Part shown: positions 139-54,506 of the stretch, piece by piece | Layout: the number at the start of each line of letters is the position of its first letter | How positions within the stretch are numbered: position 1 is the stretch's first letter | NCBI GenBank assembly: GCA_963770955.1 | Contig: CAVYRK010000007.1 | Coordinates: 145,769-209,768 of the forward strand | Origin: an uncultured Actinomycetota bacterium | GTDB lineage: Bacteria; Actinomycetota; UBA4738 | Direction: 5' to 3' | Length of the DNA: 64,000 nucleotides | Translations under genes and position numbers: made by a program | Notes under the pieces: model-generated | What the model saw: the letters and a program-made list of their open reading frames with translations, nothing else | Told to the model about the DNA's origin: nothing | Databases searched by the model: none

Positions 139-763
139 CTACGCCATCGCCGGAGTGACCGGAGTGGTTGTCGGGTGCTCGAACGCCCTGCCCTTGTGCC
201 AGGGGGTGCCAAGCGCCGGGAGCACGTAGCGGTCGAGGCCGTAGTAGCCGGCGTTGCGCCATGCGAGCACCAGCAGGACCGCGGCCAGGAAGAACACCGG
301 GTTGACGCCGGCGACGCCGGCCATCCCGAAGCTCATGTTCAGCATGCCGCCGAAGAACGCCGCGAGCCCGGTGAACAGCCCGAAGATCAGCGCGAGCCCG
401 ATCACGGTCTCGCCGATGGCGATGATCGGGGCCATCCAGCCGCCGCCCGTGGACAGGTAGTGCAGGAAGTTCGCGTACCAGCCGTAGTTGACGGCAGCGA
501 ACGGGTGTCCCGCGCCCTGCAGCGCGCCGGCCGCGAACCCCTTCAGCGCCGCCGAGCTCTTCAGCCAGGAGTCGCTGGTGTAGCCGAAGTGCCAGGTCCA
601 GAAGCCGCCGGAGGTCCCGGTGATCTTCTCCCACCCGGCGTGGAACCACTGGTAGCCGAGCCAGACCCGGACCACCAGCCAAAGCCATGCCGGCCTGGCG
701 GCTGGTGAAGAGCCACTGTGCGAACTTCGGCTCCTCGATGTTGACGGTCTCGTTCATCATCTC
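139..763 (-). CDS. DoxX-family integral membrane protein; the N-terminal ~25 aa (MMNETVNIEEPKFAQWLF...) lie in another frame at 687-763, so there is an apparent frameshift near 690
   Basis: ORF 139..675 shows hydrophobic DoxX-like segments (WLGYQWFHAGWEKI...). A strong SD GGAAGGGAGG sits 7 nt upstream of ATGATG at ~763, in a frame that joins the DoxX frame only with a 1-nt indel. Confidence 0.6.
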
Positions 764-857
764 TGCCTCCCTTCCTCTCTGGGAAGCAGCATCCGGCGTG
801 GGAAGCAAGCGCCCTACGGTCGGACGGCCCGTTCTGCGGGGGCCGTTCGGTCCGGGA

Positions 858-1517
858 TCAGGCGGATCCGGGCGTCTGGGTGTGGCGCGCGAGGTAGGCG
901 GCCGCCTCCGCGCGGCGTCCCACCTCCAGCTTGGAGAGGATGCTCGAGACGTAGTTCTTGACGGTCTTCTCGGCGAGGTGCAGCTCCTCGCCGATCTGCT
1001 TGTTGGTCTGGCCGTCGGCGACCAGGGCCAGGATGCGCTCTTCCTGCGGAGACAGCCGGGCGAGCTTGTCGTCCTTCATCAGGTGCTTGCCCCTCCGCAG
1101 GCGGTCGAGCACCGCCTTGGTGACCTGAGGATCCAGCAGGCTCTTGCCCTGGCCCACCTCCCTGATCGCCTTCACGATCTCCGTGCCCTGGATCTGCTTG
1201 AGCACGTAGCCGGAGGCGCCGGCCATGATCGAGGCGAACAGAGCCTCGTCGTCGGCGAACGACGTCAGCATCAGGACCTGGGTCTTGGGACGCTTGGCGC
1301 GGATCTCCCGCGTCGCCTCGATCCCGCTGCCGTCCGCCAGGCGGACGTCCATGACGACCACGTCGGGGCGCGTTCGCTCGGCCTCCTCGACCGCCGCGCG
1401 CACCGAGCCCGCTTCCGCGCAGATCACGATGTCGTCCGCCGCCTCGAGCAGGGCCCGGACCCCGTCCCGGACGACCTCGTGGTCGTCCACCAGCATGACG
1501 CGCAGCGGCGTGGTCAT
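858..1517 (-). CDS. dosR: LuxR/NarL-family two-component response regulator, DevR/DosR-like
   Basis: 219 aa with an N-terminal receiver (MLVDDHEVVRDGVRALLE...DVVVMDVRLADGSG) and a C-terminal LuxR HTH (LSPQEERILALVADGQTNKQIGEELHLAEKTVKNYVSSILSKL). Lies immediately downstream of a GAF-GAF kinase. Confidence 0.85.
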   Translation of the reverse strand: MTTPLRVMLVDDHEVVRDGVRALLEAADDIVICAEAGSVRAAVEEAERTRPDVVVMDVRLADGSGIEATREIRAKRPKTQVLMLTSFADDEALFASIMAGASGYVLKQIQGTEIVKAIREVGQGKSLLDPQVTKAVLDRLRRGKHLMKDDKLARLSPQEERILALVADGQTNKQIGEELHLAEKTVKNYVSSILSKLEVGRRAEAAAYLARHTQTPGSA

Positions 1518-1563
1518 GCGCCCATGCTCTCATCCCGGACGGGCTTGGCCCAACCCCGGACCG

Positions 1564-3183
1564 TCACGACCGAAAGGCGATGCGAAGGGTGGTTCCTTCC
1601 CCGGGGATCGAGGTCAGGTCCAGGGACGCCCCCATCCCCTCCGCCCGCTGGAGCATGTTGCGCAGGCCCTGCCCCGCCGGCGGCGGAGACGAGACGTCGA
1701 AGCCGCGTCCGTCGTCGTCGACCAGCAGGACGGGACCATCGTGCTCCATCGCGAGCGACACGCGCACCGTCGCCGCGCCCGCGTGACGGCCCACGTTCGA
1801 AAGTGCCTCGCGGGCGAGCTGGACGACGTCCGTGGCCTTCCCGGCGAGGGCGGCAGCAGCGCGAGGATCCACCTCGGCGACGGTGACGACCCCGGTCCGC
1901 TCGGCGAACTCGGCACCGAGCTGCCGGAGGGCGTCGTCCAGCCGCCCGCCGGCGAGGATGTCGGGGCGCAGTCCGAAGATGTAGCTGCGGAGGTCCTTGA
2001 TCACCCGGTCGAGCTCCTCGACGCCGCCCTCGATCCGCCGGGCGATGTCCTCGTCCCCGGCCAGCATCGCCGTCCCCTGGAGTCCCATGCCGACGGCGAA
2101 CAGGGACTGGATCACGCCGTCGTGCAGCTCCTTGGCGATCCGCTCCCGGTCTTCCATGAGCGTCAGGCGCTGCAGCTGGCGCTGCGCGTCTCCGAACTCG
2201 ACGGCCACGGACGCCTGTGCAGCGAACGCTTCCACCAGATCGACCTGCGCTTCTGTGAAGGGCTCCGCCCCAATGGGATTGGCGACAGACAGCGTGCCGA
2301 AGGCCTGGTTCCGGACGATCAGCGGAATGAACATCGTGGGACCCATGCGCGTCAACTCGATGAGCGCCTCGTACGCGCGCTCGTCCTCCGACGCGTTCTC
2401 GACGACGATCGGCTTCCCCAGGCTGATCACACTTCCCGAGATCGAGCCTTCGAGGGGAACGACGGTTCCCTCCAGTCCGTCGGTGTCCCTTCCGTCCGCC
2501 GCCGCGACGACGAGCGAACCATCCTGCTCCCCGTCGGGAAGCACGACCCAGGCCATCGTGGCGCCGGCGAGCTCGCGGGAGCGCGCCACCACGAGGCCGA
2601 GCGCCTCCTTCACCTCCCCGCCGGCGAGGATGGCGGTCGTCACCTCGCCCAGGGCGGCGAGCCAGCGGCCACGGCTCTCGGATTGCTCGTACAGCCGGGC
2701 ATTCGCCACCGCGATCCCCGCCTGCGCGGCCAGGATCACCAGAGACGTCTGATCCTCCTCCGTGAACGGCGACCCGCCCTGCTTCTCCGTGAGGTAGATG
2801 TTGCCGAAGACCTCGCCGCGGGCCGTCACCGGGGCGCCGAGGAACGTCCGCATCGGTGGATGGTTCGGCGGGAAGCCGACGGACCGTGGGTCGTCCGCGA
2901 TCGAGGCCAGCCGAAACGGCCTCACGTCCTTGATGAGGGCGCCGAGGACGCCCCGTCCCGTGGGAGGGTGCCCGATGGCGCGGCGTTCCTCCGGAGTGAC
3001 CCCCACGGTCACGAACTCGATGATCCGATCCCCGGGGCCGAGCACTCCCAGCGCGCCGTACCGGGCGCCGGTGAGCTCTACCCCGAGCTCGACGATGGCC
3101 TGCAGCACCAAGGGAAGGGACAACTCCGACGAGAGCGCGAGCCCCGCCTCCAGCAGCACATCCCTTTGATCTCGCCCGGCCAT
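1564..3183 (-). CDS. dosS: Sensor histidine kinase with tandem GAF domains, DevS/DosS/DosT-like
   Basis: 539 aa with two GAF-like regions followed by a HisKA_3 region (ERIAKELHDGVIQSLF) and HATPase_c (GRGFDVSS...GLRNMLQRAEGMGASLDL). Adjacent to the LuxR-type regulator. Confidence 0.85.
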   Translation of the reverse strand: MAGRDQRDVLLEAGLALSSELSLPLVLQAIVELGVELTGARYGALGVLGPGDRIIEFVTVGVTPEERRAIGHPPTGRGVLGALIKDVRPFRLASIADDPRSVGFPPNHPPMRTFLGAPVTARGEVFGNIYLTEKQGGSPFTEEDQTSLVILAAQAGIAVANARLYEQSESRGRWLAALGEVTTAILAGGEVKEALGLVVARSRELAGATMAWVVLPDGEQDGSLVVAAADGRDTDGLEGTVVPLEGSISGSVISLGKPIVVENASEDERAYEALIELTRMGPTMFIPLIVRNQAFGTLSVANPIGAEPFTEAQVDLVEAFAAQASVAVEFGDAQRQLQRLTLMEDRERIAKELHDGVIQSLFAVGMGLQGTAMLAGDEDIARRIEGGVEELDRVIKDLRSYIFGLRPDILAGGRLDDALRQLGAEFAERTGVVTVAEVDPRAAAALAGKATDVVQLAREALSNVGRHAGAATVRVSLAMEHDGPVLLVDDDGRGFDVSSPPPAGQGLRNMLQRAEGMGASLDLTSIPGEGTTLRIAFRS

Positions 3184-3222
3184 GGCACCTCGGGCCGGAG
3201 ACTACCATCGGCCGCCCGGTGC

Positions 3223-3651
3223 TCAGGTCGCCGGATGTGCCTTCGACACGGCGCGATCCAGCGCCCGCAGCACCGCGCGGCTCGATGGTGGGCGGCGAAC
3301 GATCATCGCGCCCTCGCCGCGCAGGAGCGAGGCTTCCTCGCCCGGCTCGACGATGGCGACGAGCGCGAGACCCAGGTCCCGGTACAGCAGCGCCAACTGC
3401 CATCCGGTCGCTCCGCCGTAGAGCTCGTCTCCGAGCAGGACGGTGTCCAGCACGACGGCGTCGGCGCCCGAGGCCAATGGACACGTCCCGGTCCGCACGC
3501 CGACGCAGGCGTCGTCCGGGCTCGGCCCCGGGCAGGCGAGCACCTCGTGACCGGCCGTCTCGAGGGATCGTCCGATCTCGTCCCGGACGCGCTCGTCGGC
3601 GGCGACCAGCAGGACGCGAACTGAAGCCTTTCCCCTCACGTGCTGTCTCAT
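3223..3651 (-). CDS. Stand-alone receiver-like (REC) domain protein, possibly atypical, 40 nt upstream of dosS
   Basis: MRQHVRGKASVRVLLVAADERVRDEIGRSLETAGHEVL...AVVLDTVL resembles a CheY-like receiver fold. Same strand and tight spacing to dosS. Confidence 0.4.
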   Translation of the reverse strand: MRQHVRGKASVRVLLVAADERVRDEIGRSLETAGHEVLACPGPSPDDACVGVRTGTCPLASGADAVVLDTVLLGDELYGGATGWQLALLYRDLGLALVAIVEPGEEASLLRGEGAMIVRRPPSSRAVLRALDRAVSKAHPAT

Positions 3652-3696
3652 GTCACCCCAGCGTCGGTCGCGAGGCGTTGCCGGCCAAGGGTCGAG

Positions 3697-3717
3697 GGTC
3701 CCGCCGAAGGAGGGACC
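3697..3717. promoter_or_regulatory. Perfect inverted repeat GGTCCC-N9-GGGACC, 45-65 nt upstream of the REC-dosS-dosR operon start; candidate operator
   Basis: Read directly: GGTCCCgccgaaggaGGGACC. Similar GTCCC-N9-GGGACC and GGACCC-N9-GGGTCC elements occur at 34875-34943. Confidence 0.3.
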
Positions 3718-3735
3718 AAGCACCGTTCGCAAACG

Positions 3736-3757
3736 CGGAGCGGGGGGCGAGCGCCCC
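3736..3757 (-). terminator. Perfect GC hairpin (GCGGGGGGCG-ag-CGCCCCCCGC) just 3' of the COG2403 gene; intrinsic-terminator-like
   Basis: 10-bp perfect inverted repeat with a 2-nt loop read directly from the sequence. On the minus strand it is followed by TCCGCGTTTG, a weak U-tract. Confidence 0.4.
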
Positions 3758-3784
3758 CCGCTCGAGCGTCCGGTCCGGCGTCGG

Positions 3785-5107
3785 TCACGCGACGGCGACC
3801 GAGAGCACCGGCGCCACGATGTCCTTCAGCGTGGGAACCCCCGGCAGCTCCCGCAGCGAGTACGTGACCCGGACCGCGGGACGCGGGATGCGGATCAGGT
3901 GCCGGAGGTCGATCGGGGTCGCCACGACCACCACCTCGCAGTCGGTCGCCGCGATGGCGGCTTCGAGCTCTGCGAGCTGCCCGGGCGAGTAGCCCTCGGC
4001 GGGAAGGACGGGGCCGACGTCGTACCTGTCGAACACGGCCTTCAGCGAGCCGGTGACGAACGGGCGCGGGTCGACGATCTCCTTCGCGCCGGCCCGCTGG
4101 GCCGCCACCACCCCGGCGCCGTACTTCATCCCTCCGTGGGTGAGGGTCGGACCGTCCTCGATGACCAGGACGCGCCGCCCCGCGATCGGCACGTCTCCCT
4201 CGATCCTCAGCGTGCTCTCCGCTCGGATCACCTCGGCGGAGGGATTGAGGTGGCGGATCGTCCGCTCCAGGGTCTCGACGGCCTCGGGCGTGGCGGCGTC
4301 GACCTTGTTGATCACCACGACGTCGGCCATCCGGAGGGCCGCCTCGCCCGGGTGGAACAACGTCTCGTCGCCCGTGCGAAGGGGATCCGCGACCACGATC
4401 AGGAGGTTCGGGCGGTAGAAGGGCAGGTCGTTGTTCCCGCCGTCCCACAGGAGCACGTCGCACTCCGTCTGGGCCCGTTCCAGGATCGCGCCGTAGTCCA
4501 CCCCGGCGTACACGACGGTCCCGCTCCGGATGTGGTGCTCGTACTCCTCCCGTTCCTCCACCGTGACCCGCGCGATGTCGAGGTCCTCGAGCGAGGCGAA
4601 TCGCTGGATGCGCTCGGCCACTAGGTCCCCGTAGGGCATCGGATGTCGCACGACGACCGGGCGGAGTCCCGCGGATCGCACGATCTCGGCGATGGCCCGC
4701 GTCGTCTGGCTCTTGCCGGCGCCCGTGCGGACCGCGCAGACGGCGATCACCGGCACGTTCGCCGGCAGCATCGTCGCATCCGGTCCGAGCAACGTGAAGC
4801 TCGCGCCGGCGGCGAGCGCCTTGCTCGCCCGGTGCATCACGTACTCGTGCGAGACGTCGGAGTAGCTGAACACCACCTCGTCGACCTTGAGCTCCCCGAC
4901 GAGCTCCTCCATCCGCTCCTCCGGATAGATGGGGATCCCGAGCGGATAGCCCTCGCCGGCCAGCTCGGCCGGGTACGTCCGGTCGTCGATGAACGGTATC
5001 TGCGCGGCGGTGAAGGCCACGACCTCCACGTCTCGGTCGTCGCGGAACACGACGTTGAAGTTGTGGAAGTCGCGTCCCGCGGCTCCCATGATGAGCACTC
5101 GCTTCAT
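3785..5107 (-). CDS. COG2403-family P-loop protein (cyclic 2,3-diphosphoglycerate synthetase-like)
   Basis: 440 aa. A Walker A-like motif GAGKSQTT follows an N-terminal Rossmann-like MKRVLIMGAAGRDFHNF; size and architecture fit the cDPG-synthetase/COG2403 family. Identity rests on memory of the family and is not verified. Confidence 0.5.
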   Translation of the reverse strand: MKRVLIMGAAGRDFHNFNVVFRDDRDVEVVAFTAAQIPFIDDRTYPAELAGEGYPLGIPIYPEERMEELVGELKVDEVVFSYSDVSHEYVMHRASKALAAGASFTLLGPDATMLPANVPVIAVCAVRTGAGKSQTTRAIAEIVRSAGLRPVVVRHPMPYGDLVAERIQRFASLEDLDIARVTVEEREEYEHHIRSGTVVYAGVDYGAILERAQTECDVLLWDGGNNDLPFYRPNLLIVVADPLRTGDETLFHPGEAALRMADVVVINKVDAATPEAVETLERTIRHLNPSAEVIRAESTLRIEGDVPIAGRRVLVIEDGPTLTHGGMKYGAGVVAAQRAGAKEIVDPRPFVTGSLKAVFDRYDVGPVLPAEGYSPGQLAELEAAIAATDCEVVVVATPIDLRHLIRIPRPAVRVTYSLRELPGVPTLKDIVAPVLSVAVA

Positions 5108-5140
5108 CGTCCCTCACTCCCTTTCTCTCATTGCATCGCC

Positions 5141-6674
5141 TCAGAGCGCGCCACGCCGTTCCCGATCGACAGGTCGGCGCGGCGCCTCCTCCAGCGTGAC
5201 GACGCCCATGCGCTCGAGCTCCACGGCGTGCCGGCGCTCGATCTCGGCGTGCTGGCGCCAGCGCATCAGCACGTAGACGGGGATGCCTGCCATCAGCAGC
5301 AGGAAGCCCCATGCGATCGTCTTCTCGCCCGAGCCCACCATCGCCCAGAACGCGTACCCGAAGCCCAGCAGCGCGATGATCGCGTCACGCACCAGCGACC
5401 GGCCGGCGAACCGGTCCGGCTCGCGGATCATCAGGACCAGGTGCGAGGCGGCGGCAAACGCGTACGGAACCAGCGTCGTCAGTGTGGCCAGGAGGATGAC
5501 GTTCCAGAACTGGTCCACCAGGCTCTTGCTGGAGTAGACCAGCATCAGCCCGCTGACCAGCACCGAGGAGACCACCAATCCGAACACGGGCGTGCGGCTC
5601 TTCCCGTTCACCACTCCGAACCGCTTGGGGAACAACCCATCCTGCGCGGCGGCCAGCGGAATGCGGCCCTGGATCAAGATCCAGCCGTTCAGGGCTCCGA
5701 ACGTGGAGATCAGCGCCACGAGCGCCACGAGCTTCTCCCATGTCAACCCGAGGAAGCTGCCCGTCCCGAACATCTCACGGGCGGCGTCGGCGAACGGGGC
5801 CGTCGACCCGGCCAGCTGCGCCATGGGGAGCACCCCCATGACGGCGATCGTCGCCAGCACGTAGACAACGGTCGTCGCGAGCGTGCCGAAGATCGTCGCG
5901 CGGGGGATGGTCTTCTTCGGCTCGCGGACCTCCTCGGCCGGCACCGTCGCCGATTCGAGGCCGATGAAGGCCCAGAGCGTCAGCGCGGCAGCGGCCGTGA
6001 TGCCGCCGATCATTCCGTCCCCCGTCCCCAATCCGTGGGGGGCGAAGGGCGTGAAGTGCGCTCCGTGGAGGAAGAAGAGCCCGGCGATGCCGATGCCCAG
6101 CAACGGAACGAACTTTAGGACGGTCGTGACGACCTGCACGACGTCCGGTCTGGCGGACGCCGACCGAGTTGACGAGCGTCAGGAGCCAGATCAGGCCGAT
6201 GCCGACCAGCGACGCCAGCAGATTGTTGTCGAGCACCGCGGGCCAGAACACCCCGAGGTAGGCAACGAACGCGACCGCGATGGCCGCGTTGCCGACCCAG
6301 GCGGCGATCCAGTACCCCCACGCGGTCCAGAAGCCGGCGAAATCACCGAATGCCCGGTGGGCGTAGGCGTACGGCCCGCCGGTCCGCGGATACGTGCGGC
6401 CCAACGTGGCGAACACCAGCGCGAGGAGCATCGCCCCGATGCCCGTGAACGCCCAGGCCAGGATCGAGCTCGAACCCGAGATCAGCACGACCGCGGCGAG
6501 CGACGCGGGCAGCAGGAAGACCCCGGAGCCGATCATGTTCCCGACGACGAGCGCCGTGGACATCCACGTTCCGAGGTCCCGCCTCAGCTCGGGCGACGTG
6601 TGCTCGGTCGGGATCGGGGGATTCTTCGTGCGTTCCATGACGATCCCTCCCTTCGCGGGGCGTGTCCACCCCAC
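5141..6674 (-). CDS. APC-superfamily amino-acid permease/antiporter; apparent frameshift near 6120-6170 splits it into two ORFs
   Basis: ORF 5775..6674 carries APC N-terminal TM helices (GSGVFLLPASLA...). ORF 5141..6139 carries the remaining TM helices and C-terminus. The two frames overlap over ~6120-6170 (exact point not resolved by eye). Confidence 0.75.
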
Positions 6675-6751
6675 GCATTCATGCTGGATCGCCGGTGTCC
6701 GGCCCGGTCCGCCGAAGGTCCCCCGACGGGGGGGACCCGTGTGAGGGCGTG

Positions 6752-9473
6752 TCAGACGCGCCGCGCGCTGATGGGCGGCGGCTTCGGGATGGACTCGAGC
6801 CGGATGCGGGCGTCGACCACCACCGCCCCGTGCTCGAGCACCATCACGGGGTTCAGATCCATCTCGGCGATCTCGGGATGCGCTTCGACCAGGGCCCCGA
6901 CACGCAGGACGAGCTCCTCGAGCGCCGCGACGTCCGCCTTCGGGGCCCCCCGGTACCCGTCGAGCAGCGGGAAGGTGCCGAGGGAGCGCACCATGTCGTG
7001 GACGTTGCGGTCGGTGATCGGGGTGATGCGAACGGCGACGTCCTTCAGCAGCTCCGCCGCCGTCCCGCCGGCGCCGCAGGCAACGACCGGACCGAACACG
7101 GGGTCGTGCACCACCCCGACGAGCATCTCGATCCCGCCCGTGATCATGCGCTGCACGAGGAACCCGGTCGGGTGAAGCCCCTCGTCGACGAGCCGGGCGG
7201 ACATCTCCCGCGCGGCGGCCGTCACCCGCCGCCGTCCCCGGAGGCCGAGGCGGACCAAGCCCGCTTCCGTCTTGTGCGTCATCCCGGGCACGACTGTCTT
7301 GAGCGCGACGGGGCCACGCATGTCCTCGGCCACCCGGCCCGCCTTCGCGGCCGACGACACCGTCGCCTCCTCGACCCGCGTCACGCCGTAGCAGTCGAGC
7401 AGCACGGCGATGTCCTCCGGGGACAGCCAGCCGCCCCCGCGGTCGAGCGCGTCCGCGACCAGGCCTGCCGCCTGGTCGGCGCGAAGGTCGTCGAACACGC
7501 GGACGGTCCCCTCGGGCTGCTCCCGCCAGGTGGCGTAGTCCACCGCCCGGGCGAGTCCGTGCGCGGCGTCCTCCGGGAAGGAGAACGTGGGCAGGTGCAC
7601 CGAGCCGGGCGGATTCAGCGCGGCCGGCGGCCCGGCCGACATCATGAAGACGGTCAGGAGCGGCAGCCGCCCGCCGAGCGACGCGGCTGCCGCGCGAAGC
7701 TCCGTCGCCACGTCCACCGGATCAGTCACGAGCGGAGGGATGAAGATCGCGACGATCGCGTCGGCCACGCCGGCCTCCGCCAGGACCTCGGTGGTCCGGC
7801 GGTAGTGCTCGGCGGTGGCGGAGGCGATCATGTCGACGGGATTCGACAGGCCGGCCTCCGCGGGAAGGAACTCCGCGAGGCGTCCGCGGACCTCTTCCGG
7901 CAGCGTCGGGACTTCCAACCCCAGGCCCTCGCACGCGTCCGCGCAGAGGATGCCGGGACCTCCCGCGTTGGTCAGGATGGCCACCCGGCGGCCGCGCGGG
8001 CAGCGGCTGGTTCGCGAGCAGCGACGCGACGTCGAACAGCTCCTCCAGCGAATCGGTGCGGATGACGCCGGCCTGATGGAAGAGCGCATCCACCGTGAGG
8101 TCGGAGGACGCGAGCATCGCGCCGGTGTGCGAGGACGTCGCGCGCGCGCCCGCCGTCGAACGGCCGCTCTTGACCGCAACGATCGGCTTCGTGCGCCCGA
8201 CCCGGCGGGAGATGCGCGCGAACCGGCGCGGGTTGCCGAAGGACTCCAGGTAGAGCAGGACCAGGGACGTCCCCGGGTCGGCCTCCCAGTACGAGAGCAG
8301 GTCGTTGCTGGAGATGTCGGCCTTGTTGCCCACCGAGATGAACGACGACAGCCCGAGGCCGCGGGCCTGGGCGAGATCCATGACCGCGAGGCCGAGCGCG
8401 CCGCTCTGGGAGAGGAAGCCGATGGTGCCGGGCGGCGGAGAGAGCGGAGAGAACGTGGCGTTCAGGTTCACGTCCGGGTCGGTGTTGACGATCCCCATGC
8501 AGTTCGGCCCGATCAGCCGCATCCCCGACTCGTGGCAGATGCGGACCAGCTCCAGCTGGCGGGCCCTGCCCTCCTCCCCCGCTTCGCCGAAGCCCGCCGA
8601 GATGACCACCAGGCCCCGGACGCCGTTCTCCCCACACGCGCGCGCCACGTCGGCGACGGACGCCGCGGGAACCGCGACGACCGCCACGTCCACGGGCTCG
8701 GGAAGGTCCTCCACGCTCGCGTAGGCGCGCACCGACTGCACGACCTCCGCGCCGGGGTTCACCGGATAGACGGGACCGGTGAAGCCGCTCTCCAGCAGGT
8801 TGTGGAACAGCTCGCCGCCGATCGTGCCGCGTCTCCGTGAGGCGCCGATCACCGCGACCGAGCGCGGGTGCAGGAACAGGCGGAGCGCCGCCACGGCCGC
8901 GGTGTCCTCCCGCGCCTCGAATCGGGTGACCGCCTCGGGCGTCATCGACGTCGGGAACTCCACGAGCACCGCGCCCGGCACGCTTCGCAGCCGGACGGGG
9001 AATCCCGCCTCCCGGAACACCTCGATCATCAGATGGTTGGAGGGCATCACCTGGGCCTCGAACGTGTGAATGCCGCTGTCGGCCGCGTGCTCGGCGAGAT
9101 GCCCCACCATGAGGGTGCCCATGCCCAGCCCCTGCATCGCGTCCGCGACGGTGAACGCGACCTCGGCTCGCTCCGGCGCGGTGCGTGCGTACATGGCGTG
9201 GCCGACCACGCGGGCCTCCGGACCGTGGGTGGCGACGATCGCGTAGCGGTCGCGGTAGTCGACGTCCACGAATCGCTGCGACTCCGCCTCCAGGTTCACG
9301 GACGCGGAGAAGAAGCGCAGGTACCGCGACTCGATGGACAGGTCCTCGAGGAAGCCGGCGATCGACGCACGGTCGTCGGGTCGCACCGGACGCACGCGCA
9401 CGGTCGAGCCGTCGCGAAGCGCGAGGTCGACCTCGCGCCGCGACGGGTAGTCGGTGGGCAGGGTCTCCGTCAT
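6752..9473 (-). CDS. GNAT acetyltransferase fused to an NDP(ADP)-forming acyl-CoA synthetase (CoA-binding + ATP-grasp); PatA-like protein acetyltransferase architecture; apparent frameshift near 7980-8180
   Basis: The N-terminus has a GNAT fold (MQGLGMGTLMVGHLAEHAADSGIHTFEAQV). It is followed by a CoA-binding/succinyl-CoA-synthetase-like domain (PRSVAVIGASRRRGTIGG...GPNCMGIVN...SQSGALG), then an ATP-grasp part in the second ORF (6752..8179). The domains are contiguous only across a frame change. Confidence 0.7.
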
Positions 9474-9483
9474 GTCCGAGCGC

Positions 9484-12099
9484 TCATGCTACGCGGATGC
9501 GCGCCTCGGCCCGGACGGCGCGACGCGGAGCACCCGCGACGCGCGGACCGAACAGGCGCCGGTCGGCGCGGATGGCCAGCCAGCCGAGCGCGCCGATAGC
9601 GACGGCCAGCGCGGCGTCGGCTGCGGGAAGCGCCACGGTGCCCAGCAGGTCTCGGAGAGCCGGGACGTACAGGCCGGCCAGCGCCAGCACCAGCGATCCG
9701 GCGGCGGCCGCCGGCAGGAAGGGATTCTGCGTGGTCCACTGCCGAGCCCGCAAACCGAAGGCCACGCCCAGCTGCAGGCTGACCATCGCGACAAACACCA
9801 TGCTCTGCCATTCCTTCCCGGCGTCCAACCCCCACCGGCCCAGGACGAGCGCCGCGGCCGTCAGCACCACGCTGACGCGGAGCACCCGCTGCCACAGTCC
9901 CTGGCCCAGAACGCTCTCGTCCGGCGGGTGCGGCGGACGGAGCATCGCTCCGTCCTCGGCCGGCTCGGCACCGAGCGCCACGCCCGTCAGGCCGTGGGTG
10001 AGCAGGTTGATCCACAGGATCTGCGCGGCGAGCAGGGGAACCGTCAGCCCCACGAACGGGCCCAGGAGCATCACGAGGATCTCCGCCGCTCCGCCGGCCA
10101 TGCCGAAGACGAGGAAGCGCCGAATGTTGCCGTAGACCCTCCTGCCCTCTTCGACCGCGGCCACGACCGTCGACAGCTCGTCGTCGGCGAGGACGAGGTC
10201 GGCCGCCTGACGCGCCACCTCGGTCCCCCGGTGGCCCATCGCGACGCCGATGTCGGAGCGTCGCAGGGCGGGGCCGTCGTTCACGCCGTCGCCGGTCATC
10301 GCCACCACGTCGCCCCGGTCGCGCCACGCCTGGACGATATCGAGCTTCTGTTCCGGAGCGGTCCGTGCGAACACCCGCGGCATGGTCAGGTCGGGGACGC
10401 GGCCCTCGAGGATCTGCGCGCCGGTCACGACCTCGCCGTCCGGCTCGGACACGATGCCGACGGCCCGGGCCACCGCCCGCGCGGTCGCCGGATGGTCCCC
10501 GGTGATCAGGACCGGCGTGATCCCGGCGGACCGGCACGCGTCGACCGTCGCCCGCGCCGCGGGCTTCGGCGCATCCGCGATGGCCAGGAGGCCAAGGATG
10601 CGGAGGTCCGCGGCGATGTCCCCGGTCTCGCCCGGCGGCTCGTCCGCCGAGCCCTCGGCGATCGCCAGCACGCGATAGCCGCGGTCGGCGAACGCGTGCG
10701 CGCGTCGCACGACGTCCGCCCGGAACGCGTCCTCGCCCACGGAGCCGATGGATGAGGCCACCGACTCGGGCGATCCCTTTCGGACGACCAGGAACCGTGA
10801 TCCGTCGCGGTGCACGGTGGTCATGTGCTGCCGCTCGCTGTCGAAGGGGATCTCGTCGACGCGCGGGTACTCGTCCTCGAGGGACGCCCGAGTGACGCCG
10901 GCCTTTCCCGCAGCGGCCAGCAGGGCGACCTCGGTCGGATCACCGAGTCCCGACCAGCCGTCCCCGACCCCGGCGGGCGGGACCAGCGACGCGTCGTTGC
11001 AGAGGGCCGCGGCCGCGAGCAACCGGACGAGATCGGGAGCGTCGCGCGCGTCCAGGCGGCGACCGTCCTCCCACACGTCGCCGCGCGGCTCGTACCCCTC
11101 CCCGGTGAGCTCGACCGACCGTTGCGGCGTCCAGGCCTCCTGCACCATCATGCGCCCGGTCGTCAGCGTTCCCGTCTTGTCCGTGGCGAGGACCGTCACC
11201 GAGCCGAGCGTCTCGACCGCCGACAACCGCCGCACGATCGCGTTCCGTTCCGCCATGCGGCGCGCCCCCAGGGCCAGGCTCAGGGTCACGACCGCCGGCA
11301 GGGACTCCGGCACCGCGGCCACCGACAGACTGATGGCGGTGACCACCATCAGCTCCACCGGCTGCCCCCGGAACAGGCCGAGCACGAGTACCAGCCCGCT
11401 CAGTCCCACCACGGCCGCGGCGAGCACACGGCCGAGGTCCGCCAGCCGGCGCTGGAGCGGCGTGGCCTGCGGTCGCGTGTCCGTCAGCGCCGCGATCCGC
11501 CCGAGCGTGCTGCGGGGACCGGTTCGCGTCACCTCGGCGAGCCCACGGCCCTTGACCACCACCGTGCCGGCGGCCACTTCCTCCCCTTCGGCCTCGGTGT
11601 GCGGCCCGCGCTTGCCGACCGGCACGGACTCGCCCGTCAGGGCGGACTCGTCCACGAGGAGGGCCGAGGCCTGGAGCAGTCGCGCGTCGGCGGGGACGAC
11701 GTCGCCCTCCGCTAGGAGCACGAGGTCGCCGGGGACGAGATCGCTCGCGGCGATGTGCGATTCAACACCGTTGCGGCGAACCCGTACCGCCGGCGCAGAG
11801 AGCTCCGACAGCGCCGTCACCGCGCGATCGGCGCGGAGCTCCTGGACCACCCCGACCGCGGAGTTCGCGATGACGACCAGCGCGATGACGGCGGCATCGG
11901 TCAGGTCCCCGGTCGCGAGCGTCAGCACGCACGCCCCCAGCAACACCAGGATGAGCGGATCGCGCAACTGCGTACCGATGCTCGACCACACCGACACCCG
12001 CGGCCGGTGGCGCACCTCGTTCGGCCCGAACCGGGCGAGGCGCTCGGTGGCGTCCGCGGTGGAGAGCCCGTCCGGCCCGCGTTCGGTGGTGGCTGTCAT
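9484..12099 (-). CDS. Cation-transporting P-type ATPase (type II, Ca2+/Mg2+ class; CtpF-like)
   Basis: 872 aa from MTATTERG. Contains TGES (LTGESVP), DKTGTLT phosphorylation motif, TGDHPATA and GDGVNDGPAL. The long N-terminal extension of the called ORF is arginine-rich junk. Confidence 0.9.
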   Translation of the reverse strand: MTATTERGPDGLSTADATERLARFGPNEVRHRPRVSVWSSIGTQLRDPLILVLLGACVLTLATGDLTDAAVIALVVIANSAVGVVQELRADRAVTALSELSAPAVRVRRNGVESHIAASDLVPGDLVLLAEGDVVPADARLLQASALLVDESALTGESVPVGKRGPHTEAEGEEVAAGTVVVKGRGLAEVTRTGPRSTLGRIAALTDTRPQATPLQRRLADLGRVLAAAVVGLSGLVLVLGLFRGQPVELMVVTAISLSVAAVPESLPAVVTLSLALGARRMAERNAIVRRLSAVETLGSVTVLATDKTGTLTTGRMMVQEAWTPQRSVELTGEGYEPRGDVWEDGRRLDARDAPDLVRLLAAAALCNDASLVPPAGVGDGWSGLGDPTEVALLAAAGKAGVTRASLEDEYPRVDEIPFDSERQHMTTVHRDGSRFLVVRKGSPESVASSIGSVGEDAFRADVVRRAHAFADRGYRVLAIAEGSADEPPGETGDIAADLRILGLLAIADAPKPAARATVDACRSAGITPVLITGDHPATARAVARAVGIVSEPDGEVVTGAQILEGRVPDLTMPRVFARTAPEQKLDIVQAWRDRGDVVAMTGDGVNDGPALRRSDIGVAMGHRGTEVARQAADLVLADDELSTVVAAVEEGRRVYGNIRRFLVFGMAGGAAEILVMLLGPFVGLTVPLLAAQILWINLLTHGLTGVALGAEPAEDGAMLRPPHPPDESVLGQGLWQRVLRVSVVLTAAALVLGRWGLDAGKEWQSMVFVAMVSLQLGVAFGLRARQWTTQNPFLPAAAAGSLVLALAGLYVPALRDLLGTVALPAADAALAVAIGALGWLAIRADRRLFGPRVAGAPRRAVRAEARIRVA

Positions 12100-12304
12100 C
12101 GTCACAACTCGGCTCCATGGGCGGCCGCTCACCGCCGGTCGCCCGGCTGGGCGAAGGAGCGCGAACGGACCGCAGGTTCGATCCTCCCCGTTTCCGGAGG
12201 CGAGCCGGGGAGCCGAACGGCACCCAGCGCCACGGACCTTCTGCCCTCCCCGGTCCGCCGGACTGCACCTACCGTCGGTAGGAGAAGCACCGAGGAGGTG
12301 GCCC

Positions 12305-13066
12305 ATGAGCAAGACGGTGGAGACGGTGATGACGAGGCAGGTGGCGGTGGTGACCCCGCGCGCTCCGTTCAAGGAGATCGCCGAATTGCTCGCCGAGTAC
12401 CGCGTGAGCGCGGTGCCCGTCGTGGACGAGAACGGGGCGCTGCTCGGAATCGTCACCGAGGAGGACTTGCTGCTCAAGGAGGCCCGGCTGCAAGACGACG
12501 GCCGGCTGCTGGAAGGGCAGAGGAAGCGGCGGGAGCGCCACAAGGCCGAGGGCCTGTTTGCCACCGACCTGATGACGACCCCTGTCATCACGGTCCGCCC
12601 GGCGGCCCCGCTGGCAGAGGCCGCTCGACGGATGCACGAGCACCACGTGAAGCGTCTCCCGGTCGTCGACGCGACCGGCAAGCTGCTCGGGATCGTCAGC
12701 CGCGGGGATCTGCTCCGTGTGTTCGTGCGGCCCGATCCGTTCCTGGAGCGGGAGGTGCGCGAGGACGTGCTGCAGCGCCACTTCGCCGACCAGGCGGACG
12801 GGATCATCGCAACCGTTCACGACGGCGTCGTGCTCCTGACGGGCACGATCGAACGGCGGAGCCAGATGAACGTCCTGCTCGGGCTCATCGGGGGCGTCGA
12901 CGGTCTGGTGGGCATCGACAACCAGCTGCACGCGAGGGTCGACGACCTGGTGCGGCCGGCGTACGTCGCCGGCGCGGTCGGGTCCCTCGGCTACGCCTTC
13001 GTGCCGGGGACGGTTCCCGCCCCGGGGTCGCCCGCCGACCAGAACCGGGAACCGGCCCACCGCTGA
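12305..13066 (+). CDS. CBS-domain pair plus BON-domain protein (Hrp1/Rv2626c-like stress protein)
   Basis: MSKTVETVMTRQVAVVTPRAPFKEIAELLAEYRVSAVPVVDENGALLGIVTEEDLL... forms two CBS motifs. A C-terminal BON-like segment follows (VLLTGTIERRSQMNVLLGLIGGVDGLVGIDNQL). Divergent from the P-type ATPase. Confidence 0.8.
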   Translation: MSKTVETVMTRQVAVVTPRAPFKEIAELLAEYRVSAVPVVDENGALLGIVTEEDLLLKEARLQDDGRLLEGQRKRRERHKAEGLFATDLMTTPVITVRPAAPLAEAARRMHEHHVKRLPVVDATGKLLGIVSRGDLLRVFVRPDPFLEREVREDVLQRHFADQADGIIATVHDGVVLLTGTIERRSQMNVLLGLIGGVDGLVGIDNQLHARVDDLVRPAYVAGAVGSLGYAFVPGTVPAPGSPADQNREPAHR

Positions 13067-13082: not shown

Positions 13083-14195
13083 ATGAACATCGGACTCCCT
13101 GGAATGCACAAGGAGGCGGGCGAGCGCCGCGACTTCCTGCCCGACTTCGTCCGGCGGCTGTCGGAGGCGGGCGCCGGCGCGATCGTCCTCGAGAAGGGGT
13201 ACGGCTCGGGGATGGGCGTCGCCCCCGAGGCCTACCTCGCGGCCGCGCCGCGGGCGCGCTTCGGGTGCCTCGACGAATGCCTCGAGCAGGAGCTGGTCGC
13301 CGTCGTGCGTTGCCCCGGCGCGGGCGCGCTCAACCGCCTGCCCGCGGGGACGACCCTGCTGTCGATGCTGCACTACGGGACGTGGCCCGCCAGGACACGG
13401 TGGCTTGCCGAGCAGGGCATCCGCGCGATCAGCATGGACGGCATCGTCGACGACGACGGACGCCGGCGGGTGGAGGCCTTCGCGTCCGTCGGGTGGAACG
13501 GCGTCCGCGCCGCCTTCGCCGAGATCGCGAGGCTCCACCCGATGTTCTCCCACCCGGGCCGGGAGCCCCTGCGGGTGACGTGCCTCGGCGCCGGAGCGGT
13601 CGGGGGACACGCCATCCGCGCAGCCACGCGGTACGGAGACCCGAAGCTGCGCGAGGAGCTCGTCTCGCGCCGCGTGCCCGGCGTGGAGGTGACGGTCGCA
13701 GACTTCGACCTCACGTGGCACGAGGACTACATGCGGACGCGGCTGGAGCGTACCGACCTGCTGATCGACGCCACGCAGCGACTGGATCCCTCGCGGCCCG
13801 TGGTGCCGAATGCCTGGATCGCGAGTCTTCCCGACGGCGCCGTCATCCTCGACCTGTCGGCCGACACGTACGACCCGAGCGCGCACCCGCCCAAGACCAA
13901 GGGCATCGAAGGAATCCCGGAGGGCGACCTCGACCAGTGGGTGTTCGCGCCGACCGACCCGGCCTACGAGGACGTCCCGCCATCCGTCCCGACGGCTCAC
14001 CGCAGGGTGGCGCTGTCCTGCTACGCATGGCCGGGGCTCACGCCCCGCGAGTGCATGGCGTTGTACGGCTCACAGCTGGAGCCGTTCCTTCCCCTGATCG
14101 TCGGCGGCACGCCGACGGAGCATGACCGCGAGTCGCACGAGGGGCGCGCCCTTGCCCGAGCGGAGGTGACGACATGGCTGGCACAGGCGGCCTGA
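13083..14195 (+). CDS. Alanine dehydrogenase/PNT-family NAD(P)-binding oxidoreductase (AlaDH / saccharopine-DH / CEOS-like), copy 1
   Basis: The N-terminus MNIGLPGMHKEAGERRDFLPDFV...VLEKGYGSGMG matches the AlaDH/PNT N-terminal domain pattern. A central Rossmann motif LGAGAVGGHAIRAA is present. 370 aa. Confidence 0.65.
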   Translation: MNIGLPGMHKEAGERRDFLPDFVRRLSEAGAGAIVLEKGYGSGMGVAPEAYLAAAPRARFGCLDECLEQELVAVVRCPGAGALNRLPAGTTLLSMLHYGTWPARTRWLAEQGIRAISMDGIVDDDGRRRVEAFASVGWNGVRAAFAEIARLHPMFSHPGREPLRVTCLGAGAVGGHAIRAATRYGDPKLREELVSRRVPGVEVTVADFDLTWHEDYMRTRLERTDLLIDATQRLDPSRPVVPNAWIASLPDGAVILDLSADTYDPSAHPPKTKGIEGIPEGDLDQWVFAPTDPAYEDVPPSVPTAHRRVALSCYAWPGLTPRECMALYGSQLEPFLPLIVGGTPTEHDRESHEGRALARAEVTTWLAQAA

Positions 14196-15433
14196 CGCTG
14201 GGCTTGCCCCGGATGCACAAGGAAGCCGGCGAGCGCCGTGACTTCCTGCCCGAGTTCGTCCGGCACGTGGCTCCGCACGCCGCCGTCGTCGTCGCCGAGG
14301 CCGGCATCGGGTCGGGCATGGACCTGTCGGACGCGGACTACACCGCGATCCCGCGGACGCGGTCGGCGACGCACGACGAGGCGTACCGGCAGGACGTCGT
14401 CCTGGTGCTGCGTGCGCCGGAGGACGCGGAGCTCCGGCTGCTGCATCCGGGCGCGACGCTCGTGTCGATGCTGCACTTCCCCACCCGCCCCGAGCGCGTG
14501 CGGTGCCTCCGGCGGCTCGGCGTGGACGCGGTGAGCCTCGATTCGCTGGCGGACGACGCCGGACGGCGCCTGGTCGAGGATGCGCGCGCCGTTGCCTGGA
14601 ATGGACTGGACATCGCCTTCGGAGTGCTGGAGAAGCAGCGACCTCGATTCTGGGATCCGTATCGAGACCCCATCCGAGTGACGATCCTGGGGGCCGGCGC
14701 CGTGGGTCGCGATGCGGTCGAGGCGGCCACGAAGTACGGCGACCCGGTGCGCTTCGAGCGCGCGGAGGCAGCCGGCGTCCCTGGCGTCGAAGTCGTGACC
14801 GTCGGGCGCAACCTGTCGCGCGATGCCGTCTACCTGCGAAGGCGCCTGCGGGACACCGACATCCTGGTGGACGCGGCGGCCCGCCACGACACCCAGACCC
14901 CGGTGGTCCCGAACACCTGGATCGGCCTGCTGCCGCGGCACGCCGTCATCTGCGACCTCGCCGTCGACTGCTACGAGCTGACGGCGACGCCGCCGGTCGT
15001 CCGGGGCATCGAGGGCATCCCCGCCGGCAACCTCGACCAGCAGGTCTTCCAGCCCGACGATCCGCGATGGGAGACGATGCTTCCCAACGGCGTGCCGTCG
15101 CGACACCGCCGGACGGTCGTGTCGTGCTACTCGTGGCCCGGAGTGCGTCCGCGCGAGTGCATGGAGCTGTACGGCGAGCAGCTCGCGCCGCTGATGATCG
15201 AGCTGCTGGACCGCGGAGGGCTGGACGGGCTCCGGCCCGTGCGCTCGGCGCCGGACCGCGCGCTGCTCCGCGCGAGCCTGCGGGCTCAACCCCCGCGCAT
15301 CGCCACGAGCCGCGTCATCCGGCCCGCTCGACGGGCTCCTGCGCGGCCGGTGACGGCGCGGGCGCGATTCGCGGCTGCCGTGCCGGACGACCGGCGGCCA
15401 GCTGGTGCCGCTCCGGCCGCTGGCCGGCGGTGA
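14174..15433 (+). CDS. Alanine dehydrogenase/PNT-family oxidoreductase, copy 2 (divergent tandem paralogue of 13083..14195)
   Basis: Collinear similarity to copy 1 (LGLPRMHKEAGERRDFLPEFV..., ILGAGAVGRDAVEAATKYGDP, VVSCYSWPGVRPRECMELYGEQL). The C-terminal ~60 aa are low-complexity and the true end is uncertain. Confidence 0.6.
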   Translation: MAGTGGLTLGLPRMHKEAGERRDFLPEFVRHVAPHAAVVVAEAGIGSGMDLSDADYTAIPRTRSATHDEAYRQDVVLVLRAPEDAELRLLHPGATLVSMLHFPTRPERVRCLRRLGVDAVSLDSLADDAGRRLVEDARAVAWNGLDIAFGVLEKQRPRFWDPYRDPIRVTILGAGAVGRDAVEAATKYGDPVRFERAEAAGVPGVEVVTVGRNLSRDAVYLRRRLRDTDILVDAAARHDTQTPVVPNTWIGLLPRHAVICDLAVDCYELTATPPVVRGIEGIPAGNLDQQVFQPDDPRWETMLPNGVPSRHRRTVVSCYSWPGVRPRECMELYGEQLAPLMIELLDRGGLDGLRPVRSAPDRALLRASLRAQPPRIATSRVIRPARRAPARPVTARARFAAAVPDDRRPAGAAPAAGRR

Positions 15434-15936
15434 GCCCGCGCACGATCACCAGGAACAGGATCGAGAGGCCCGGTCACGACGTAGAGCCACCACATCCACG
15501 GCCGTGCGGAGTCCGTCCCCGCGAAGACGCCGTGCACCATCGCCAGGACGAACGCGGGCGCGGCCAGCAGGTGGAGGCGCCGCCACCAGGTGGGGCCGAC
15601 GCGCCGCCGCGACCACGACGACGCGAGGACGGTCACCATCGAATACATCGCGAGCACGCCGAACGCGGTCGCCGCGGGGTGAAACGAGGCGTGCAGCGGA
15701 ACCAGGACGTCCAGCAGCCGGAACGGCATGAACGAATCCACCAGCAGCAGGCCCACGTGCGCGCCCAGCAGCAGCAGCGCCGCCGTGGACAGGAACTGGT
15801 GGATCGTCACGGCGGTCGCCTTCGGCACGCGGGGGCCGAACACCGACGTCGTCCCGATCAGGCCCCACGCCACCGACAGGAAGAGCAGCACGTAGGCGCC
15901 GATCCCCGCGGCCCGCAACAGGATCCAGGTGGTCAT
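15286..15936 (-). CDS. Ferric-reductase-like transmembrane (heme b) domain protein; the C-terminal Ala/Arg-rich tail is probably over-called
   Basis: From MTTWILLRAAGIGAYVLLFLSVAWGLI... the protein has 4-5 TM helices with conserved His residues (HQFLSTAALLLLGAHVGL, MVHGVF). The start overlaps the apbE stop (ATGA). Confidence 0.5.
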   Translation of the reverse strand: MTTWILLRAAGIGAYVLLFLSVAWGLIGTTSVFGPRVPKATAVTIHQFLSTAALLLLGAHVGLLLVDSFMPFRLLDVLVPLHASFHPAATAFGVLAMYSMVTVLASSWSRRRVGPTWWRRLHLLAAPAFVLAMVHGVFAGTDSARPWMWWLYVVTGPLDPVPGDRARAHRRPAAGAAPAGRRSSGTAAANRARAVTGRAGARRAGRMTRLVAMRGG

Positions 15937-16841: not shown

Positions 16842-17156
16842 GGGTGCGACCCTCCCGTGCTCGCCGCCGGCGGGGGCGCCGCGAATCCCGCCGTCACCAC
16901 CGCCGGCGCGCCGACCGTCACCACGCGCGGCGCGGACGAGACCACCACCCGCCGAACGACGTGGTGGATGAGCACAACCGGCCTTTGCGCCGTCGTTGCG
17001 GGCGGGGCCGCCGACGCCGGGGGCCTCGGCGCCATGGACAGGATGCCTGTGGGCAACAGGAAGCTCGCGCCGCCGGCCACCCACGTCCAGGCGCGAAGCA
17101 CCCCGCGCGACGCGCGCTTCGTACGGCGGGGAGGAGAGGGGACGACCCGCAGGTGC

Positions 17157-18268: not shown

Positions 18269-18271
18269 CCG

Positions 18272-21091: not shown

Positions 21092-21126
21092 TCGACCACT
21101 CTAGGGCGGGAGCCCGGACGCCTTGA

Positions 21127-23580: not shown

Positions 23581-23587
23581 GACGTCA

Positions 23588-34874: not shown

Positions 34875-34943
34875 GGACCCGCATTGGAGGGGTCCAACGG
34901 CAGGACACCCGGGGGGGCCGGTCGTCCCGGACGGCGCGGGACC
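34875..34943. promoter_or_regulatory. Pair of inverted repeats in the divergent DsrE / flavodoxin-CBS promoter region: GGACCC-N9-GGGTCC (34875-34895) and GTCCC-N9-GGGACC (34924-34943)
   Basis: Read directly from the sequence. Arm sequence and 9-bp spacer are the same as the element at 3697-3717. Confidence 0.3.
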
Positions 34944-54495: not shown

Positions 54496-54506
54496 CGCTT
54501 CCTCCC

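Follow-up and report, generated by a model that had tools for sequence, protein, structure and literature searches.

The 64-kb window analysed here, that is, the whole stretch of contig CAVYRK010000007.1 from an uncultured Actinomycetota bacterium, has a GC content of ~72% and carries a string of four genes at positions 3785–12099. They encode a P2-type cation ATPase, a fusion of a GNAT acetyltransferase with an ADP-forming acyl-CoA synthetase (ACD), an AdiC-like permease and a P-loop protein of the COG2403 family (Table 1). An earlier reading of the letters without database searches (the sequence-only reading) had described them as co-directional and 10–80 bp apart. Domain searches bore out all four gene identities, and all four run on the minus strand, with support from the third-codon GC. 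As nine consecutive minus-strand genes span 139–12099, this shared direction is nothing special. The spacing was recovered for two of the three gaps, with 10 nt between the ATPase and fusion genes and 33 nt between the permease and COG2403 genes, whereas the fusion–permease gap is 113 nt and shortens to 77 nt only from an upstream GTG start that is unused in relatives. The GC-rich hairpin behind the COG2403 gene scored z = −3.07, with a counterpart in the related locus L082 at z = −3.0, and is likely the transcript end. The hairpin within the fusion–permease gap was weak and not significant (z = −1.3), and scans for sigma-70 promoters and T-tract terminators were uninformative at 72% GC. The next unit opens with a small conserved open reading frame (ORF) without any Pfam family match. 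We read the string as two adjacent two-gene units within an oxygen-limitation island of the DevS/DevR type rather than as one four-gene system, with a probability of roughly 0.6.

Table 1 Features of the four-gene string and its surroundings in the 64-kb window
Feature	Position	Strand	Size or match	Basis or remark
P2-type cation ATPase	9484–12099	minus	871 aa	Pfam; exact protein present in deposited assembly
GNAT / ADP-forming acyl-CoA synthetase fusion	6752–9473	minus	906 aa after removing one extra base	Pfam
GNAT domain of fusion	~9000–9398	minus	~190 residues extra at N-terminus	
Phosphohistidine codon, H449 of SSHTGAM	8127–8129	minus		
AdiC-like APC basic amino acid/polyamine antiporter	5141–6638	minus	~498 aa after removing one extra base	Pfam, NCBIfam
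COG2403-family P-loop protein	3785–5107	minus	440 aa	
GC-rich hairpin	3738–3763	minus	11-bp stem	22 nt past COG2403 stop codon
Small conserved ORF	3223–3651	minus	~142 aa	opens next unit
DevS/DosT-type sensor kinase	1564–3183	minus	GAF-GAF-HisKA_3-HATPase	Pfam
DevR/DosR-type response regulator (LuxR-type)	858–1517	minus		
CBS-CBS-BON protein gene	12305–13066	plus		divergent from ATPase; Pfam, tblastn
Tandem DevR/OsdR-like boxes, 23 nt apart	34915–34951		0 + 1 mismatches	probable promoter region between divergent genes
Tandem DevR/OsdR-like boxes, 23 nt apart	36764–36800		0 + 1 mismatches	between genes
Tandem DevR/OsdR-like boxes, 23 nt apart	817–853		2 + 1 mismatches	between genes, upstream of DoxX
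Tandem DevR/OsdR-like boxes, 23 nt apart	12210–12246		2 + 2 mismatches	divergent CBS-BON/ATPase promoter region
Single degenerate DevR/OsdR-like box GGGACCTTCGGCGG	6709–6722	minus	2 mismatches	in 113-nt gap, overlaps weak hairpin
DevR-like box	3689–3702			precedes small ORF

The loci of close relatives, denoted L with a number, were located via the COG2403 protein and via the fusion. In L081, whose COG2403 protein is 85% identical to that of the window, the order is a CBS gene on the opposite strand, the ATPase, an intact 906-aa fusion, an Nramp gene on the opposite strand, a 502-aa permease and COG2403. The order in L082 and L083 (82%) reads fusion, 505-aa permease, COG2403, small ORF, GAF–GAF kinase, LuxR-type regulator, DoxX and Usp. 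L087 (L087:1-6523; ~87% DNA identity) carries the ATPase, the fusion, the small ORF and the kinase without permease and COG2403, and its ATPase, fusion and flanking genes are still syntenic with the window. These orders indicate that the string breaks at the fusion–permease gap and that the permease–COG2403 pair is present or absent as a block. The same pair, permease first, recurs in L081–L083, in L088 (75% identity, beside ATPase and CBS genes) and in L089 (72%, in an unrelated context), and permease and COG2403 were never present at the fusion loci L084–L086, L171 and L172.

We collected 166 COG2403 loci from species-representative genomes, metagenomes and single-protein lookups, where the genome and metagenome scans gave relatives of at most 70% identity and the closer contexts came from the single-protein lookups. 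A carbamate kinase gene accompanied COG2403 in 60 of the 166 loci, mostly 4–90 nt downstream on the same strand, and an OTC-like carbamoyltransferase gene in 26. A permease was found in six, all of them nearest relatives (L081–L083, L088, L089 and L105), the GNAT–synthetase fusion in three close relatives, besides two synthetases that are distant and not fused, and a P-type ATPase in two.

On the other side of the break, the fusion and a P-type ATPase were adjacent and co-directional, 10–29 nt apart, in the window, L081 and L087 (ATPase first) as well as in L084 and L171 (fusion first). CBS/CBS-BON and/or USP proteins are encoded near the fusion in most such loci, and a GAF–GAF–HisKA_3 kinase lies within 10 kb of it in six of the eight relatives' fusion loci, as it does in the window. 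L084 shows a CBS gene on the opposite strand, the fusion and, after 15 nt, the ATPase, with Usp, CBS-BON, ApbE plus Ferric_reduct and a GAF kinase nearby; L171 shows CBS, fusion and, after 28 nt, the ATPase, together with an MgtE-like gene, Usp, several CBS-BON genes and a GAF kinase. In L086 the fusion and the ATPase lie on opposite strands with one CBS-BON gene between them, Usp, ATPase and CBS-BON sharing one strand divergent from the fusion, and two regulators and a GAF kinase lie nearby. The fusion of L085 stands beside Usp, hemerythrin and VIT1, and that of L172 stands alone with a GAF kinase and a regulator 5 kb off. The recurring arrangement is a P-type pump of one kind or another next to the fusion rather than a single orthologous pair. 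The pump of the window comprises the Pfam domains Cation_ATPase_N, E1-E2_ATPase, Cation_ATPase, Hydrolase and Cation_ATPase_C, carries the motifs DKTGT and GDGVND as well as PESLP in M4, and matched best, in NCBIfam, a PMR1-type Ca-ATPase with 526 bits, under the cut-off of that family. In the window and in L081, M6 reads NLLTHG in place of the NLxTDG of Ca-type P2 ATPases; since a histidine thereby replaces the conserved ion-binding aspartate, the transported ion may not be calcium.

The two-component system downstream of the string provides the setting. The first GAF domain of the kinase matched the heme-binding GAF domains of DosT (2VZW, E 1e-47) and DevS (E 1e-43 to 1e-44), and the best solved match of the regulator was full-length Mycobacterium tuberculosis DevR (3C3W, E 6e-55), with the recognition-helix segment LAEKTVKNYVS identical in both proteins. 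By these matches, the adjacent system is a clear homologue of DevS/DosT–DevR. Scanning with the OsdR/DevR consensus AGGGCCGATCGGCCCT (PMC5069765) yielded tandem boxes at four places, of which those at 817, 34915 and 36764 score best and lie at or next to gene starts, with a CBS gene, an SRPBCC-like gene and DoxX nearby. The tandem arrangement at 12210 is conserved in L081 (1 + 2 mismatches), and the pairs at 12210 and 817 recur at matching places in relatives. Furthermore, the 18-nt near-palindrome GGGTGCCGWTCGGCTCCC at 12210–12227 is conserved with L081:1531-1548, likewise in the CBS/ATPase intergenic region, and resembles an OsdR box whose two halves are altered symmetrically. Among the relatives, L082 has a tandem pair upstream of the small ORF preceding the kinase, where the window has its DevR-like box at 3689–3702. 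In L088, a tandem with 0 + 1 mismatches separates the ATPase gene from the CBS gene, and a box without mismatches precedes the permease by 81 nt. A box that matches perfectly also lies between CBS gene and fusion in L086. The strict mycobacterial DosR box GGGACNNNNGTCCC, allowing at most one mismatch, was not enriched in the window (10 found, 9.4 expected). The DosR regulon of M. tuberculosis includes a P2 ATPase, ctpF (PMC9180918). Elsewhere the window holds three more CBS/CBS-BON genes, a phosphoribosyltransferase, a second P-type ATPase, OsmC, DsrE and SQR-like genes, and through its CBS, pump, hydrogenase, OsmC, DsrE and SQR-like content it fits the DevS/DevR theme.

We then turn to the proteins themselves. 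For the fusion, Pfam gave the order Acetyltransf_1/3, CoA_binding, Succ_CoA_lig, Ligase_CoA_2 and ATP-grasp_5, confirming the reversed arrangement with the GNAT domain at the N-terminus, an order known from "type II" lysine acetyltransferases (PMC6456759). The GNAT domain matched that of the Streptomyces lividans enzyme SlPatA (4NXY) with E 1.4e-30, so that the fusion is rightly described as PatA-like in its domain order and in the homology of its GNAT domain. This description does not extend to an inactive synthetase half: the acyl-CoA synthetase-like domain of type I and type II acetyltransferases is described as inactive, with the catalytic histidine absent (PMC8556138), whereas in the fusion this histidine is present and invariant. 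The SSHTGAM segment aligns with the SHTG of 4-hydroxybutyrate-CoA ligase 8WZU (421 bits) and of the P. horikoshii ACD 2CSU (362 bits), while E. coli PatZ, a full-length match with 350 bits, has no histidine at the H449 position. The segments S448-H449-T450-G451 and H733-K734 show no variation across 40 family members, nor do the GNAT residues E104, G115 and G117, and the acetyl-CoA P-loop motif QGLGMG is conserved; the family occurs at 62–67% identity in many Actinomycetota metagenome-assembled genomes. Overall, the fusion has the architecture of an ACD, in which the alpha part (CoA_binding, Succ_CoA_lig) carries the phosphohistidine loop and the beta part, an ATP-grasp domain, carries a second histidine. 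Both histidines have catalytic roles in ACDs. Because the phosphohistidine motif is kept, unlike in Pat-type acetyltransferases, the fusion may be a working ATP-forming enzyme, and the simplest reading of its sequence is that both halves would be functional.

The permease matched AA_permease_2 in Pfam and a basic amino acid/polyamine antiporter as its best NCBIfam family. Its nearest solved relative is AdiC, with a full-length match at E 1e-78 compared to 1e-40 for the next best, and it keeps the residues aligned to AdiC N22, S26, G27, Y93, N101, W202, I205, E208 and W293, which serve the substrate site of AdiC. Against the AdiC equivalog PRK10644 it scored 336 bits, with the cut-off at 574, and no arginine decarboxylase appeared in Pfam scans of most called window genes.

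The COG2403 protein combines an N-terminal Rossmann-like domain with an LpxK/G3E-like NTPase domain, and its relatives bear the names "predicted GTPase" (JGI) and "cyclic 2,3-diphosphoglycerate synthase" (NCBI). Its invariant motifs are the Walker A GAGKS, WDGGNND and NKxD (NKVD in the window; N267, K268, D270). Identity between Actinomycetota and archaea (Bathyarchaeia) is 55–70%, and the family occurs in Actinomycetota, Chloroflexota, Aminicenantes, Bathyarchaeia and others, with only 609 hits at E 1e-30 among 1.84 billion 50%-identity representatives. The AlphaFold model (pLDDT 88) gave as top Foldseek match the cyclic 2,3-diphosphoglycerate (cDPG) synthetase 8ORU (E 1.6e-16, 15% identity, TM-score 0.47), followed by LpxK, DUF1611 proteins and HypB. 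Sequence similarity to cDPG synthetase (cDPGS) is weak (E 4e-4), and the sequence alignments, through which the 2,3-DPG-binding residues (K145, R146, and E45/K46 of the partner subunit) were sought, span just the C-terminal half of the P-loop domain. NKxD aligns with ITMCEE or ITLAD of the solved cDPGS enzymes, so that a guanine-specific motif stands in place of an ATP-type nucleotide pocket (E305 region). As this invariant GTPase motif takes the place of ITMCEE/ITLAD and cDPGS uses ATP (PMC10690619), we classify COG2403, from its motifs, as a GTPase-type relative of cDPGS and not as a cDPG synthetase; the likeness to cDPG synthetase proposed by the sequence-only reading stands only at the level of the fold.

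The partner that COG2403 keeps most steadily is carbamate kinase. In P0372 (766 aa), one protein of the 50%-identity representative library, a carbamate kinase of full length (337 bits to the arcC model) is joined to a COG2403 domain that shares 52% identity with its counterpart in the window, although this is a single instance and may be a gene-calling artefact. In the clade of the window, COG2403 adjoins the AdiC-like permease instead of carbamate kinase, a partner which suggests that an arginine/agmatine-type theme linked to carbamoyl phosphate may be kept. The literature on COG2403/Sll0572 yielded no functional data and only the label "potential GTPase". A HypB-like role in hydrogenase maturation was considered and rejected, as hyp and hydrogenase genes were absent from the surroundings of COG2403 in the 172 loci retrieved, of which 166 carry it. 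A further homologue, P0516 (806 aa), contains an apparent intein (Intein_splicing, LAGLIDADG_3) upstream of residue 504.

Two of the four genes are broken in frame. The fusion is split by one extra base at ~7998–8000 of the minus strand, CCC versus CC in intact relatives, and is called in the deposited assembly as two fragments of 583 aa and 338 aa; the permease is split by a second extra base at ~6142–6144, which the sequence-only reading had missed. The repaired fusion of 906 aa aligned to the intact homologue P0242 at 92% identity, free of gaps and of further stops or indels. A frame-aware Viterbi scan of the whole window for stop-free frame switches unexplained by an opposite-strand gene returned six, all on the minus strand, at 7999, 6148, 27439, 27151, 26959 and 54157. 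The last four fall into unrelated genes: the large subunit of a [NiFe]-hydrogenase (26400–28470) has three one-base breaks (26959, 27151, 27439) over four frames and, when joined, is coherent from the RICGICP motif to the DPCISCATH motif, and a nitrilase/CN_hydrolase gene (53569–54514) has a one-base break at 54157 and, when joined, fits its Pfam model end to end. A Pfam match crosses the first of the three hydrogenase junctions as well as the nitrilase junction. With about one break per 10 kb in otherwise well-reading genes, assembly indel error fits better than targeted decay, and the breaks in the fusion and the permease are probably sequencing or assembly errors. The frameshift suspected earlier in the fusion is hence present in the assembly, but probably not as a genuine lesion. 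Programmed frameshifting in the two genes was rejected, since the one-base insertions are absent from intact relatives and four more breaks occur in unrelated genes. The fusion of L087 carries a different lesion, a ~75-nt gap with a frame change near residues 762–782.

Our preferred reading, two adjacent pairs in a DevS/DevR-type island, can be cast as follows. Unit A would consist of the P2-type pump and, 10 nt further on, the GNAT–ACD fusion, in which both catalytic histidines are retained. Once respiration fails, its synthetase half would convert acetyl-CoA, ADP and Pi to acetate, ATP and CoA, the GNAT half would acetylate regulatory targets, and the pump would spend ATP on ion homeostasis. 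We infer the direction of the synthetase, and likewise the targets of the GNAT half, from the hypoxia setting, from the known Pat substrates, which are AMP-forming acyl-CoA synthetases (PMC4053389), and from the acetylation of DosR by the Pat-type Rv0998 in M. tuberculosis (PMC5861037); acetyl-CoA as substrate is likewise a proposal. Unit B would pair the antiporter, of arginine/agmatine type, after 33 nt with the GTPase-like COG2403 protein and end at the strong hairpin. It may exchange a guanidino or basic amino compound, and this exchange would be tied to ATP formation from carbamoyl phosphate by a carbamate kinase encoded elsewhere in the genome. The coupling into a metabolic-shutdown or acylation module that had been guessed is borne out in its shutdown theme, because the genes sit in a DevS/DevR-type hypoxia island, but not as a single four-gene module.

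Several observations weigh against this reading. The fusion-adjacent ATPases are not orthologous between lineages, being 34–42% identical to the window ATPase with differing ion-site motifs (L171 and L086 look Ca-type and L084 Mg-type, next to the histidine of the window and L081), so that the pump–fusion pairing may reflect shared membership of a regulon rather than a direct functional link. The fusion scores under the cut-off of NCBIfam TIGR02717 (acetate–CoA ligase alpha; 494.5 versus 567 bits), as it does for NF045493 (481 bits, cut-off 1300). Both the fusion and the permease are frame-broken in the assembly, and L087 has its separate fusion lesion. Single OsdR-type boxes are not enriched in the window, with 30 found versus 43 expected, tandem boxes are marginally so (4 versus 1.3 expected, a count reached in 11 of 200 simulations), and the boxes before the ATPase and the permease are degenerate (2 + 2 and 2 mismatches, respectively). 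Co-transcription and DevR control of these particular genes are what we infer from the DNA. Finally, no carbamate kinase or OTC gene lies within the 64-kb window, and the permease–COG2403 pairs of L088 and L089 have no adjoining carbamate kinase or OTC gene either.

Alternatively, the four genes could form one operon and a single acylation or metabolic-shutdown module acting on one pathway, as their common direction, the short gaps and the preservation of the order ATPase, fusion, permease, COG2403 in L081–L083 (82–85% COG2403 identity) might suggest. We consider this distinctly improbable: the opposite-strand Nramp gene interrupts the string in L081, L087 lacks the permease and COG2403 half, the gap between fusion and permease is 113 nt, the fusion occurs without permease or COG2403 in L084–L086, L171 and L172, and beyond the nearest clade the fusion is never, and an ATPase almost never, found near COG2403, so that the coupling of all four genes did not withstand the co-occurrence analysis. 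Decay is another way to account for the losses in L087, where the permease and COG2403 are gone and the fusion has its independent ~75-nt lesion. Together with the frame breaks of the deposited assembly, these could mean that fusion and permease are genuine pseudogenes of a module decaying in this lineage. Given at least six one-base breaks in 64 kb, including three in the hydrogenase and one in the nitrilase, a protein that stays coherent over every junction, and a repaired fusion 92% identical to its intact homologue with neither gaps nor further stops or indels, such decay appears quite unlikely.

The biochemical readings of single proteins can be judged in the same manner. The fusion might be an ordinary type II lysine acetyltransferase like SlPatA, whose non-catalytic synthetase-like domain only senses acetyl-CoA, and its domain order, the homology of its GNAT domain to 4NXY, the full-length PatZ match and the view of reviews that the GNAT–synthetase architecture is regulatory are all in keeping with this. 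It seems to us somewhat unlikely nonetheless, since inactivity is tied by the review to the missing histidine (PMC8556138) while SSHTG and HK are invariant in the 40 members, true ADP-forming ligases score higher (421 and 362 bits) than PatZ (350 bits), and by-eye inspection of the translated fusion revealed no collagen-like G-P-S repeat. For COG2403, a real cDPG synthetase that makes a protective solute for dormancy would agree with the name given by NCBI to some relatives, with the best fold match to 8ORU and with the weak sequence similarity. The 15% identity at a TM-score of 0.47, the invariant NKxD in place of ITMCEE/ITLAD, a family that retains over 55% identity among mesophilic bacteria and archaea and adjoins carbamate kinase or OTC, and the restriction of cDPG to hyperthermophilic methanogens (PMC10690619) make it extremely improbable.

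Returning to the two-unit reading, the string itself is ordinary island organisation, and the novelty lies in the histidine-retaining GNAT–ACD family and in the link between COG2403 and carbamate kinase. A large actinobacterial family keeps both histidines, though the sensor domain of this architecture is described in review as inactive, and an enzyme that makes ATP from acyl-CoA and acetylates proteins, encoded next to ion pumps within an island of DevR type, would link energy conservation to acetylation in dormancy. For COG2403, a widespread, uncharacterised orphan family labelled cDPG synthase in some database records, the adjacency to carbamate kinase (60/166) and the one natural fusion offer a starting hypothesis. 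A bolder version, which we regard as speculative and unlikely, sees in the island a self-contained anaerobic maintenance circuit, in which two substrate-level ATP sources feed the cation pumps under DevR control. The active GNAT–ACD fusion would be one source, making acetate and ATP and at the same time acetylating and silencing AMP-forming synthetases and perhaps DevR; an arginine/agmatine-type route would be the other, with the COG2403 GTPase as the missing partner of carbamate kinase. If this were true, type II Pat enzymes of the fusion's family would be bifunctional, and COG2403 would belong to the conserved machinery by which bacteria and archaea catabolise carbamoyl phosphate.

Further genes of the window were noted in passing. 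Downstream of the CBS-BON gene lie the tandem paralogues 13083–14195 and 14174–15433 (plus strand), with weak matches to the N- and C-terminal AlaDh_PNT domains. An ApbE gene beside a gene for a ferric-reductase-like membrane protein recurs in the window (15286–16850, minus strand), in L081:1-648 and in L084:2016-3577 plus 4539-5492. At 17570–21100 (minus strand), a phosphoribosyltransferase gene is followed by the second P-type ATPase, 38% identical to the L081 ATPase, which is an orthologue of the first; L088 carries a phosphoribosyltransferase–DLH fusion, which we take to resemble mycobacterial Rv0571c. The hydrogenase cluster at 21127–30501 encodes HypE, a probable HypD, HypC, HypF, the large and small [NiFe] subunits, an NAD_binding/Fe-S protein and Fer4_22, resembles group 3 cytosolic hydrogenases and is followed by a CBS-BON gene.

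Compared with known systems, the fusion shares with SlPatA (type II, class I-alpha) the domain order and a GNAT domain homologous to 4NXY. It differs in its invariant catalytic histidine motif, a contrast that rests on the review's description of type II enzymes, in the lack of a visible collagen-like G-P-S motif and in its place beside a P-type ATPase in a hypoxia island. With the ADP-forming acyl-CoA synthetases (archaeal ACD, 8WZU, 2CSU and ckcACD 4XYL) it has the SHTG loop and the ATP-grasp HK motif in common, and the alpha and beta domains of 8WZU are joined in the same order; in contrast to these enzymes it adds an N-terminal GNAT domain of ~190 residues and scores under the NCBIfam equivalog cut-offs. 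The permease has the APC fold and the aligned substrate-site residues of the AdiC arginine:agmatine antiporter, but falls under the equivalog cut-off and has COG2403 rather than an arginine decarboxylase as its genomic partner. COG2403 shares a two-domain architecture with an LpxK-like P-loop domain with cDPGS (8ORK/8ORU) and LpxK, and departs from cDPGS in the guanine-specificity motif NKxD and in its genomic partners, which are carbamate kinase, OTC or a permease. The island as a whole resembles the DosR regulon of M. tuberculosis and the OsdR regulon of Streptomyces coelicolor in its heme-GAF kinase and DevR-type regulator, its CBS and, in relatives, USP proteins, a ctpF-like P2-type ATPase, a phosphoribosyltransferase and palindromic GGGMC-N4-GKCCC promoter boxes. 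In contrast to these regulons, it has degenerate boxes before the two studied units, and it adds the GNAT–ACD fusion, the AdiC-like permease, COG2403 and a group-3-like [NiFe]-hydrogenase with its hyp genes.

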